Below are positions 1-3,000 of a stretch of DNA of 4,069 nt, in pieces; position 1 is the stretch's first letter; each line of letters starts with the position of its first letter. This stretch comes from Thermotogota bacterium. Lineage in GTDB: Bacteria; Bipolaricaulota; Bipolaricaulia; UBA7950; UBA9294. A program made the position numbers. The stretch covers positions 1 through 4,069 of the forward strand of contig JBDKUT010000010.1 of assembly GCA_039679545.1 (NCBI GenBank), read 5' to 3'.

Positions 1-3000
1 CTTTCCGTGAGGCCGCAGAGACGATTAAACCCGGTTCCCACCCCCGACACGGCGAGTGGCAGGCGGGAACCCACGGGCGGAAGGGAGGGGATGCGAGGCG
101 ACCTTTCAGAGCGACGGAGCGAGAGCGGAGGCCTGCCCGCATCAGGTGGCGGCCGCGGCCTCGGACGGGCTCGTGACCTCGATGTCGAGTCCGAGGAGCT
201 TCGCGGTCAGCCGAACGTTCTGTCCACCCTTGCCGATGGCGAGGGACAACTCGTCATCCGGCACGAGGACCTTGGCCTTCCGGTTCTCCTTGTCCAGCTC
301 AACGGAGAGGACGGACGCCGGCTCGAGGCCGTTCTTGAGCAGCTGGACCGGATCCTCGCTCCACCGGACGAGGTCGATCTTCTCGCCCGACAATTCGCGC
401 GTCACAACGCGCACCCTGGCGCCGCCTGCTCCGACGCAGGTCCCTACGGGGTCGACGTTCCGGTCGAGCGACTCGACGGCCACCTTCGACCTTCGTCCCG
501 GCTCGCGAGCGATCGCTCGGATGACGAGGGTCCCCTCGTCGATCTCCGGAACCTCGAGCCGCATCAGCTCCGCGACGAACTCCTTTCGAGTTCGGGAAAG
601 GAGGATGCGCGGATCGCCCTGGGTCTGCTCGACGCTTACGAGGTAGCAGCGGAGGCGCTGGCCCGCGTGGTACCGCTCGCCCGGAATCCGCTCGGGTTCC
701 GGGAGAACCGCTTCGGCCTCGCCCAAGTTGACCCAGACGCTCTTCCCTTCAAACCGATGGATCGAGCCGCTGATGATCTCGCCGACGCGGGTCGCGTAGA
801 GGTTGTAGACGATCTCGCGCCGTCGCTGGACGATCTCCTGGCGGATGGTCTCTTCCGCCTTCTTGGTGGCGATGCGTCCGAACGTCGCGAGGTCGATGTG
901 CTCGCCGCGAATGAGGATGTCCCCGGAGCGCTGGTCGATCTCGACCTCGACCTCTTCCTCCAGGCCGTGCTCCTCCTGGTAGGCGGCCGCGAGGCCTTTG
1001 CGAATGGCCGCGTAGAGATCCTCTCGCGGGATCCCCTTCTCCTTGGCCATCTCTTCCAGCGCTTCTATGAACTCGATGTTCATCGTTCGTCCATCCTGTC
1101 GTACCCCTGAGACGCCGAGCGTCTTCGCCGCGGTGGACTTCCCGCCGCCGGCCTCTTACTCTCTCCCCTAACAAACAACGCGGTCGCACAAGTGGCGACC
1201 TGCCGTCCGTCCCAGGTGGACGCGCTCTAGGCATTATACGGGAGTCCACGTGAGCGAACAAACGAGTCCCCAACCCAATGGAAGACATCATCCGGACCGT
1301 CGAACCTGAAGAGGAAGGCGAGCGCCTCGACCGGGCCCTCGTCGCCCTCGGGGGAGGTCTCGCCCGAACGGAGATCCAGCGCCAGATCCGCGCCGGTCGC
1401 GTTCTCGTCGATTCCATCGCCGTCGTCCAGCCGTCCCGGCGGCTTCGTGCCGGCGAGCAGATCATTTGGCACGTCGCCCCAAAGCAGGCTCTGGCCCCGC
1501 GGGAACTCGCGATTCCAATCCTGTACGAGGACAACGCGCTTCTCGTAGTCGACAAGCCGGCGGGCCTCGTCGTGCACCCCGGCGCCGGCACGACGGAGAC
1601 CACGCTCGTCGAAGCCCTCCTTGTCGGGCGCGACCTTCCCGCGTCGGACAACCCCGTCCGGCCCGGCATCGTTCATCGGCTCGACAAGGAGACAAGCGGC
1701 GTTCTTGTGGTCGCGAAGACGGCCGAGGCGCTCGCGTCCCTCCAGAGGCAGTTCGCGGCACGGACGGTCGAGAAGCTGTACTTGGCGCTCGTCGACGGCG
1801 TCATCGCCGAGGACGAGGGGAGGATCGACGCGCCGATCGGCCGAGACCCCGCGGCGCCGCGGCGCATGAGCATTCAGGCGGGAGGTCGCACGGCGCAGAC
1901 GGTCTTCCGGGTCCTGCGCCGCGAGCGCGGCCGATCGCTCCTCCTCGTGCGGCCGCTGACCGGAAGGACGCACCAGGTTCGCGTGCACTTCCGCTACATC
2001 GGACTCCCGGTCGTCGGAGATGAGATCTACGGAGGCCCCGCAGCGCCACGCTTGGGGTTGCACGCGTGGAGGCTTACGATTTGCCATCCCTCGTCGGGAG
2101 AGGCCATGACATTCGAAGCCCCGCCGCCCTGCGATTTTCCAGCGTACGACTACGAGGCGCTGCGCGCGAGCGACCTCGCGGCGACGTAGTAGTCGATCCC
2201 GGCGGCGTAGGTGAGCGCGGTCGCCGCATAGAAGAGCTCGATCCCCCCGGGCCATCCGGCCATCACAAACGCAAGCGCGATGAAGGCGGACGCCGACGCA
2301 ACCTTCCCAATGATTCTCGCGGCCTGGACGAGATTCCCGCGCATGCGAAGCACGAGGGCGCCGATTCCGATCCCGATTTGCGGGACGAGGAACAGAACGA
2401 CGGCCAGCGTCGGCAGAAGGCCGATCGCGTAGAGCGTGAACAGGACAGAGGCGTACATCGCCTTGTCGACGAGGGGATCGAGGACTTTGCCGAGGCGAGT
2501 CACCTCGTGCCGCGCCCGTGCGACGAGCCCATCAATCGGATCGGTCGCGCAAGCGGCCAGAAACACCCACCACGCTGCCCACCGCTCGCCCAGGACGAGG
2601 AGAACGACTACCGGAACGATGGCGAGGCCGCGCGTGATCGTGATTGCGTTCGCAAGGGACATGATCGCGAGGAATCATAGATCGCTCTTCCTCGCTTCAC
2701 AACTACCCTTGAAGCTCTTTCGCCAAGCTCGGTATAATGCGGCCCTTCGAAGGTCCGCTGAGGATCCGGCAAGGGGAGGCCTAGTCATGAAACGACGCGT
2801 CATCATCATGGGAGCTGCCGGGCGCGACTTCCACAACTTCAACGTGTACTTCCGCGACAACGCGGACTACGAGGTCGTGGCGTTCACCGCAACGCAGATC
2901 CCGGATATCGAGGGGCGGACGTACCCGAAGGAGCTTGCGGGACGCCTCTATCCCGCGGGCATTCCAATCCACGCCGAGGACGAGCTCGCGCAGCTCATCG

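Follow-up and report, generated by a model that had tools for sequence, protein, structure and literature searches.

The closest named relative of known structure to the enzyme considered here is E. coli RluD (PDB 1V9F, 2IST, 1PRZ, 1QYU, 7BL5), in which an S4 domain is joined to an RluA-family catalytic domain with an HRLD motif, and the same architecture recurs in the protein described below. The wider setting of that protein is a synthase repertoire that lacks TruA, the enzyme that makes pseudouridine 38–40 of tRNA 'in most species', as one review puts it (PMC13602947). Natural loss of TruA has already been described in the Hominis subgroup of the Mollicutes and in the hemoplasmas, accompanied in some lineages by loss of TruB (Grosjean et al. 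2014, PMC4014445). Those organisms are host-bound parasites with genomes below 1 Mb, according to that study, whereas the Bipolaricaulota are a whole phylum with genomes of ∼0.7–4.1 Mb; and whereas TruB is simply lost in some Mollicutes lineages, Pus10 appears to replace it in the Bipolaricaulota.

A second precedent is archaeal. A survey of Sulfolobus islandicus reports only aPus7, aPus10 and Cbf5 and found no TruA homologue (PMC11077068), so that this organism, like the Bipolaricaulota, combines a very small synthase set and the lack of TruA with a Pus10 that serves positions 54/55. In Sulfolobus, however, the Cbf5 guide-RNA machinery can reach extra sites, whereas the TruB/Cbf5-type domain is over cut-off in 0 of 184 Bipolaricaulota genomes. 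An earlier note on this genome had described TruA as kept across life's three domains, which S. islandicus and the two Mollicutes groups show to be too strong. Pus10 is called absent from bacteria in another review (PMC6380271). Within the open literature (subscription journals and supplements aside), work on the Acetothermia offered no link to Pus10 or pseudouridine, Bipolaricaulota and pseudouridine met only in a remark on few ribosome biogenesis factors, and nothing relevant was found on TruA in the Patescibacteria.

The RluD-type gene and its surroundings

Bipolaricaulota are presumably free-living, and the genome that carries the present locus is a MAG, 93.55% complete and in 163 contigs. 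The window, by which is meant the whole stretch of 4,069 nucleotides analysed (positions 1 to 4,069 of contig C10), contains on the forward strand an open frame of 303 amino acids at 1278..2189, stop codon included. The earlier note had assigned it an S4 and a PseudoU_synth_2 domain, and both score above their cut-offs: the S4 RNA-binding domain (PF01479) spans residues 15–62 (1320..1463, forward strand) with 29.7 bits against 22.8, and the catalytic domain (PF00849) spans residues 88–239 (1539..1994, forward strand) with 125.6 bits against 26.8, its location at C10:1539–1994 coming from a six-frame search. The HRLD motif lies at residues 133–136 (1674..1685, forward strand), where Asp136 is presumably the catalytic aspartate, as is usual for the RluA family; the stretch at this motif, GIVHRLDKETSG, has the same residues in the best PDB match.

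The protein exceeds the cut-off of the rluA_subfam model TIGR00005 (256.6 bits against 192.7), and its best NCBIfam equivalog is RluD (NF008385, 208.1 bits), ahead of RluC and RluA at 136 bits each; because 208 bits lies under the RluD equivalog cut-off of 351, the gene is named RluD-type here and not taken as a proven RluD equivalog. Among solved structures with a name, E. coli RluD is again the best match (168 bits over residues 5–260), against 132 bits for RluA and 115 bits for RluC. The S4 domain is carried by RluD and RluC and is missing from RluA. By these similarities the protein is an S4-bearing, RluA-family pseudouridine synthase closest to RluD, and the gene itself is to all appearance that of an ordinary rRNA pseudouridine synthase of RluD type.

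Its substrate may be predicted with some caution. The 23S rRNA copy of this genome, on contig C8, keeps three uridines in what we take to be the helix 69 loop, numbered on the same assumption, and the RluD-type protein would be expected to target U1911/1915/1917. RlmH, the partner of RluD, is a methyltransferase that acts on the RluD product at 1915, and its presence might have served as indirect proof of pseudouridine 1915. Unlike the E. coli system, this genome returned no match to RlmH; the helix 69 assignment, too, is thus one by similarity, and the missing gene lends support neither way.

A nusA gene lies upstream on the reverse strand at 142..1083, divergent from the synthase gene (TIGR01953 NusA, 328.4 bits; NusA_N and KH_5 domains). 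Downstream, also on the reverse strand, a CDP-alcohol phosphatidyltransferase gene (2150..2662; PF01066, 96.2 bits) overlaps the synthase gene by 40 nt at their 3' ends (2150–2189). It is followed on the forward strand by a gene for a P-loop protein that weakly resembles CobW/HypB/UreG (2790..4067; PF02492, 27.2 bits), whose start is approximate within an open frame at 2436–4067 that extends past the end of the window.

Other synthases and the search for TruA

The earlier note had proposed a set of three synthases without TruA, and its inventory largely stands, the exceptions being the class of one enzyme, the reported absence of RsuA-type genes and several phylum-wide details. As stated there, the genome has just two genuine PF00849 loci, one on C10 and one on C153; the further match of 12.7 bits on C105 falls in a protein that was judged by eye to be a ClpB-type chaperone. 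The two loci are not both of RluA/RluD type, however. The enzyme at C153:31529–32359 reaches 108.9 bits on TIGR00093, just under the cut-off of 109.3 for that RsuA/RluB/E/F model, whereas the model of the RluA subfamily gives it no more than 26.1 bits; its best equivalogs are RsuA (84 bits) and RluB (69 bits). On these scores it is not an RluA-type enzyme but most probably one of the RsuA family, which leaves the C10 protein as the RluD-like one of the pair and makes the supposed absence of RsuA-type genes most likely an error.

The third member, an archaeal-type Pus10, is present as had been claimed, at C29:3757–4938, with 465 bits on TIGR01213 (cut-off 200), 213.5 bits on the Pus10_C domain and 65.8 bits on the archaeal Pus10 THUMP domain. 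Pus10 was found in 169 of the 184 phylum genomes and in all 71 of high quality, and its nearest relatives outside the phylum are of Methanomicrobiales type (44–50% identity). TruB_N gave no match in this genome at E ≤ 10 and was over cut-off in 0 of 184 phylum genomes, in agreement with the earlier note. That note's absence of TruD holds for this genome (no six-frame match even at E ≤ 10) and for its family (0 of 28 genomes), but not for the phylum, where TruD occurs in 7 of 74 genomes. Nor is a set of three the minimum within the phylum, as its description among the smallest might suggest, since closed Bipolaricaulota genomes have two recognisable pseudouridine synthases. PF00849 itself is present in 74 of 74 phylum genomes at least 90% complete, and the RluD-like protein in 41 of 41 genomes at least 92% complete, so that the RluD-like gene is the one PF00849-family synthase common to nearly every Bipolaricaulota genome searched. 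In 25 of the 74 it is, unlike in E. coli, the sole gene of that family, and the RsuA-like gene therefore cannot be a phylum-wide stand-in for TruA.

TruA was reported missing from genome and phylum, and the searches bear this out. Neither PF01416 nor TIGR00071 matched the six-frame translation of this genome even at E ≤ 10, and a home-built TruA profile (six sequences from five other phyla, run in hmmsearch without filters) returned only noise against the genome's 31,900 six-frame ORFs, the best E being 4.2. TIGR00071 was over cut-off in 0 of 74 phylum genomes at least 90% complete, a set that includes the single-contig genomes G005 (96%) and G006 (99%). With tool and threshold unchanged, the model detected TruA in 78 of 81 genomes belonging to one comparison phylum of small MAGs, and comparison MAGs taken from other phyla had it in 5 of 5 cases; the PF01416 positive control, 13 of 14 named genomes, was reproduced. 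TrmD and MiaA are present in this genome, so the search method does recover other anticodon-arm enzymes from the MAG. TruA is thus undetectable in this genome and in the whole phylum, a MAG artefact being all but excluded; what the searches show is the absence of TruA and TruB homologues and the presence of Pus10.

The few PF01416 matches deserve separate description. Over the cut-off are 3 of 184 phylum genomes, at 24–28 bits, on ORFs of ∼1060 aa from one genus, which the earlier note had rightly called not TruA-like; its count of 0 among 31 family genomes was not reproduced, and the three false matches fall within that very family. The match in G154 and a weaker one in G176 lie in PAS/GGDEF signalling proteins, and those of G152 and G156 are presumably of the same kind, sharing genus, ORF length and profile region with G154. 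The ORFs that were read for this (L084, L089; ∼640–1070 aa) are sensor proteins with GGDEF visible by eye. Four weaker ones comprise three amidase-like ORFs and one without assignment (L266); the ORFs of 234 and 287 aa carry a DAGHGG motif, which we take to be cell-wall amidase-like. A side observation on the model itself is that PAS/GGDEF proteins of a single Bipolaricaulota genus pass the PF01416 cut-off as false matches.

Uridines 38 and 39 and candidate enzymes

The uridines on which TruA would act persist. U38 or U39 occurs in 21 of the 48 tRNAs of this genome (three of 51 aragorn calls were dropped as not credible) and in 40 of 121 Bipolaricaulota tRNAs, about a third. U39 is less frequent in the Bipolaricaulota (24 of 121) than in comparison genomes (19 of 48; p = 0.011, on tRNAs of related genomes that are not independent and, for the comparison, on those of the best-scoring 30 loci and their flanks). 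It might be expected that such a depletion reflects adaptation to the loss of TruA, but the control pair 29–41 shifts equally: A-U there falls from 25 of 48 in the comparison to 28 of 121, a drop the same as or larger than that of U39. The lower U39 is accordingly read as part of a general rise in the G+C of the stem, with no specific loss of U39. Within the stem A31-U39 is preferred over U31-A39 (23 against 8), and this preference, like the retained uridines, would also be expected if the positions were still modified.

It is probable, though well short of certain, that these observations reflect a combination of an inherited RluD, an ancestral loss, a Pus10 active on the T-loop and plain uridine in the anticodon arm. 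The C10 protein would be a vertically inherited RluD orthologue whose S4 domain holds the RNA while Asp136 of HRLD isomerises the three helix 69 uridines. The ancestor of the phylum would have lost both TruA and TruB, presumably once, and the archaeal-type Pus10 would have assumed T-loop modification. The role of TruA would have been taken by nothing, so that U38 and U39 most likely stay unmodified, a view drawn from gene content alone. Unmodified U38/U39 would agree with the gene inventories of the TruA-less Mollicutes groups and of Sulfolobus. Between the alternatives posed by the earlier note, unmodified positions 38–40 or hand-over to an RluA-type enzyme, the underlying loss of TruA and the persistence of the target uridines hold; the two RluA-type enzymes do not, and the RluD-like one is unmarked by any change.

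That pseudouridine 38/39 is made without the TruA family, whether the RluD-like protein or Pus10 takes on a further substrate or a synthase from an unrecognised family does the work, is possible but doubtful. The form of it that survives best, in which the RluD-like protein acts on both helix 69 and the anticodon arm or Pus10 acts beyond the T-loop, is itself unlikely. It would account for the uridines kept in 40 of 121 tRNAs and for their retained A31-U39 orientation, and it has only these two proteins to call upon in the 25 of 74 genomes with a single PF00849 gene. Models for such a dual rRNA/tRNA substrate exist in the same enzyme family: in NCBIfam RluA bears the name of a bifunctional enzyme, for position 32 of tRNA and position 746 of 23S, and when human RPUSD4 is depleted, mt-tRNA-Phe has less pseudouridine 39 (PMC5377769). 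The latter precedent is weakened, however, by a 2026 paper that gives U39 of mitochondrial tRNAs to PUSL1, a TruA-family enzyme. RPUSD4 resembles the present protein weakly (64 bits), and both it and RluA are models of a hand-over, not evidence for one here.

The RluD-like protein bears no sign of such a change. Its length and domains are the usual ones, with neither an extra domain nor an odd size, and its descent is vertical: in a tree that joins this protein and 29 others from the phylum (together the best-scoring 30 of 41 phylum genomes) to 80 sequences of other phyla, the 30 Bipolaricaulota rows all cluster, with one weakly supported Dehalococcoidia row inside the cluster. A functional change might be betrayed by a long branch, but the stem of the clade is short (∼0.06, among those best-scoring 30 of 41). 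At ∼47–49%, its identity to RluD of TruA-bearing phyla is much like that within its own phylum, where distant members share 46–51% with it. Nothing in length, domains, descent or stem, then, points to a re-tasked enzyme, as far as sequence can tell. As for Pus10, we know of no member that modifies the anticodon arm.

A synthase so divergent that the six family models miss it, or one of a new family, might instead make pseudouridine 38–40. Profile searches detect known families only and the target uridines persist, but the sub-threshold matches inspected were PAS/GGDEF, amidase-like and ClpB proteins, with L266 alone unassigned, and the unfiltered TruA profile returned noise from this genome, so that such an enzyme is quite improbable. 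A TruA that was present but missed through assembly gaps or the search's first-look filter, as the 163 contigs and incomplete state of this MAG could suggest, is scarcely credible given the single-contig genomes among the 74, the 78 of 81 controls and the independent unfiltered search.

Meaning for the phylum

Few tRNA modification enzymes are kept as widely as TruA and TruB, and the Bipolaricaulota are a phylum in which no genome searched shows either. Marker sets and annotation pipelines that expect either gene will under-rate Bipolaricaulota genomes. If pseudouridine 38/39 were made here without TruA, it would amount to a phylum-wide non-orthologous replacement of a highly conserved tRNA modification enzyme, and for any such widened specificity the phylum offers a short list of candidates, the RluD-like protein and Pus10. 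The Bipolaricaulota also constitute a natural experiment on the dispensability of anticodon-arm pseudouridine.

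Pseudouridine synthases of the genome

The MAG (2.35 Mb in 163 contigs, 93.55 per cent complete, 3.62 per cent contamination) was inventoried by six-frame searches, and 14 control genomes were searched alike. TruA (models PF01416 and TIGR00071), which makes tRNA pseudouridine 38–40, TruB (TruB_N) and TruD gave zero matches in this genome even at E ≤ 10; among the controls these models matched in 13, 13, 14 and 7 of the 14 genomes, respectively. An independent profile was drawn from six TruA sequences, contributed by five MAGs of other phyla that all carry TruA (144–219 bits); run with HMMER filters off on all 31,900 six-frame ORFs no shorter than 40 aa, it gave a best match of E = 4.2. 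Pus10 is encoded on contig C29 (465 bits on TIGR01213, cut-off 200) and carries the archaeal THUMP and Pus10_C domains. The synthase family PF00849 is matched only on C10, whose first 4,069 bases form the window (127.6 bits), and on C153 (63.6 bits), besides a 12.7-bit match on C105 that was rejected as a third synthase because the protein reads as ClpB.

The absence of TruA, TruB and TruD and the presence of Pus10, as claimed in the earlier note, were reproduced in these searches, whereas its count of two RluA-type genes and no RsuA-type gene has to be revised. The C153 protein (276 aa, with an S4 domain) scores 108.9 bits on TIGR00093, the RsuA/RluB/RluE/RluF subfamily model with a cut-off of 109.3, as well as 84 bits on the RsuA equivalog and 69 bits on RluB, against just 26 bits on the RluA subfamily model. 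Its catalytic domain fits the former subfamily best, and the set therefore appears to consist of three enzymes: an RluD-type, an RsuA-type and Pus10.

The RluD-type gene and its surroundings

The ATG-initiated open frame at 1278–2189 (+) encodes a 303-aa protein of standard length and domain order, with a Pfam match to the S4 domain at residues 15–62, PseudoU_synth_2 at residues 88–239 (125.6 bits, cut-off 26.8) and an HRLD motif at residues 133–136 that includes the presumed catalytic aspartate. The protein passes the RluA-subfamily model (256.6 bits versus 192.7), and its top equivalog is RluD at 208 bits, under the cut-off of 351; among solved structures the best named match is E. coli RluD (168 bits), followed by RluA (132) and RluC (115). 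The gene is real, intact and in itself unremarkable.

Divergent from it lies nusA (142–1083, −), and a convergent CDP-alcohol phosphatidyltransferase gene (2150–2662, −) overlaps its 3′ end by 40 nt (2150–2189). The NusA protein is short (313 aa): its NusA_N match covers only profile positions 1–55 of 119 and the TIGR01953 match picks up again at profile position 92 (residues 61–305), so that its N-terminal domain seems to lack some 35 residues. A P-loop protein (∼2790–4067, +; more than 426 aa) extends past the window end and has only a weak CobW/HypB/UreG-like match (27 bits); it may resemble the COG2403 'predicted GTPase'/cyclic 2,3-diphosphoglycerate synthetase-like group, found more typically in archaea.

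An RluD-like gene is present in all 41 phylum genomes that are at least 92 per cent complete. In a tree that joined the RluD-type protein of this genome with the best-scoring 29 of the 41 phylum members and with 80 proteins of other phyla, all 30 Bipolaricaulota rows cluster, with one weakly supported Dehalococcoidia row among them; their stem branch measures ∼0.06 changes per site, where terminal branches have a median of 0.29. The RluD-type protein is ∼47–49 per cent identical to RluD of TruA-bearing phyla, about as much as to RluD-like proteins of distant Bipolaricaulota (46–51 per cent). The genome's own 23S rRNA (contig C8, near 29065) retains the helix 69 loop with its three uridines; its stem shows a compensatory C–G to G–C swap relative to the E. 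coli sequence. A search for RlmH (PF02590), the methyltransferase for pseudouridine 1915, found none in this genome, although 8 of 10 bacterial controls have it. The features examined suggest no change in the function of the RluD-like protein. According to a 2025 survey RluD is retained even in CPR bacteria, and Bipolaricaulota are mentioned there in passing as having few ribosome biogenesis factors (PMC12641178).

Distribution across Bipolaricaulota

The phylum sample comprised 184 genomes, of which 74 are at least 90 per cent complete, among them the single-contig G005 (96 per cent) and G006 (99 per cent). The full-length TruA model TIGR00071 exceeded its cut-off in none of the 74, against 78 of 81 genomes of the comparison phylum Omnitrophota (that of G186) under the same completeness filter, and TruB_N exceeded its own in none of the 184. 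PF01416 passed in three of the 184 (24–28 bits), always in ORFs of ∼1060 aa from a single genus; 19 further genomes had weaker PF01416 matches at E ≤ 1. The long ORFs of loci L084 (G154) and L089 (G176) were rejected as TruA, being sensor proteins with a terminal GGDEF domain, as were three of four weaker matches examined, ORFs of 234, 234 and 287 aa resembling cell-wall amidases. The sole three weak TIGR00071 matches fall on these sensor proteins. The earlier note had read both TruA and TruB_N as missing throughout the phylum and the three PF01416 matches as something other than TruA, all of which is borne out, so that its observation holds in part: for the absence across the lineage, not for the enzyme typing. 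The absence of TruA across the lineage is solidly supported.

Loci L084–L088 and L120–L122, from genus g14 of the window's family, encode ∼1060-aa PAS/GAF/GGDEF sensors scoring 24–28 bits where the PF01416 gathering cut-off is 23.3, and such proteins are a trap for automated TruA annotation.

Pus10 was found in 169 of the 184 genomes and in all 71 high-quality ones. That of the window's genome is 76–90 per cent identical to public Candidatus Bipolaricaulota/Bipolaricaulis records, and the closest relatives outside the phylum are of Methanomicrobiales type (44–50 per cent). A Pus10 50–61 per cent identical to that of the window's genome also occurs in several public MAGs that go by the names 'uncultured Thermotogae/Thermotogaceae' or 'Thermotoga sp.' (L161, L162, L164–L166, L168, L177, L181, L183); being mixed among Bipolaricaulota in the match list, these MAGs are probably mislabelled Bipolaricaulota. 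TruD is patchy, occurring in 7 of the 74 genomes (4 of 37 genera) and in none of the 28 of the window's family; it was seen in G034, G033 and G025 (L117–L119) and in G101 (contig C47). The G034 copy lies within an open frame of 1088 aa, and the G101 copy is split into two matches inside one frame.

PF00849 is present in all 74 genomes: 25 have one copy, 42 have two and 7 have three. Both closed genomes belong to the 25, and some Bipolaricaulota therefore have only two recognisable synthases, an RluD-like enzyme and Pus10. These closed genomes (G005:C1 and G006:C1, 1.3 and 1.7 Mb; L255, L260) hold no TruA, TruB, TruD or RsuA-type gene. A second, short RluA-type gene (∼250–280 aa, ∼95–113 bits on PF00849) occurs in some families of the phylum (G080:C1:115579–116064, G085:C3:153902–154378, G105:C2:17184–17657 and others in f8 and f11) and is absent from the window's genome. 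It aligns with the query only from about residue 70–80, so that S4 is seemingly missing, and its product may be an enzyme of the tRNA position-32 type.

Target uridines and the probable loss of TruA

Aragorn called 51 tRNAs in the genome, three of which were discarded for lacking a T-loop motif or having a four-base anticodon. Among the remaining 48, U38 occurs in 10, U39 in 11 and U40 in none, with U38, U39 or both in 21. The best 30 tRNA loci with flanks from five other Bipolaricaulota genomes yielded 73 distinct tRNAs, 19 of them with U38 or U39, and five TruA-bearing genomes of other phyla, sampled alike, gave 21 of 48. U39 is scarcer in Bipolaricaulota (24/121 versus 19/48; Fisher p = 0.011, p-values here overstating the difference because related genomes are not independent), as are A–U pairs at 31–39 (31/121 versus 23/48). 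Avoidance of TruA sites was rejected as the cause, since A–U at the control pair 29–41 drops as strongly (28/121 versus 25/48); we put the scarcity of U39 down to a stem that is generally enriched in G+C.

Taken jointly, it seems fairly probable that the gene at 1278–2189 is the RluD orthologue of the phylum, that TruA and TruB disappeared at the base of the phylum or close to it, that Pus10 would have taken over the T-loop and that U38 and U39 would be left without modification. It is unlikely that the anticodon arm is also served by the RluD-like enzyme or Pus10: RPUSD4, whose depletion reduces pseudouridine 39 of mt-tRNA-Phe (PMC5377769), offers a partial precedent, but in a 2026 paper it is a TruA-family enzyme that is credited with mitochondrial U39 (PMC13473875). 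The RsuA-like enzyme is not a general TruA substitute because a third of genomes are without one. The earlier note left open unmodified positions or a hand-over to an RluA-type enzyme, and it is the former that we favour, so that its interpretation is supported in part. An unseen enzyme family making pseudouridine at TruA sites is decidedly improbable, and a truA gene present but missed is scarcely credible. TrmD and MiaA were readily detected, so that the search method sees other anticodon-arm enzymes in this MAG.

In the literature searched, largely outside subscription journals, no publication was found that ties Bipolaricaulota or Acetothermia to TruA, Pus10 or tRNA pseudouridine, nor any earlier report of phylum-wide TruA absence, and a paper on Pus10 describes its orthologues as occurring 'not in yeast and bacteria' (PMC6380271). 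That organisms can do without TruA in nature has been documented before: a survey of Mollicutes reports TruA as lacking in the Hominis subgroup and hemoplasmas and TruB as lacking in hemoplasmas, M. genitalium and M. pneumoniae (PMC4014445), and in a study of Sulfolobus islandicus only aPus7, aPus10 and Cbf5 were found of six families (PMC11077068). Those earlier cases, unlike the present one, are tiny-genome parasites and an archaeon with guide-RNA pseudouridylation. The absence of TruA in Bipolaricaulota adds a new instance to a kind of loss already known and is not a new type of system.
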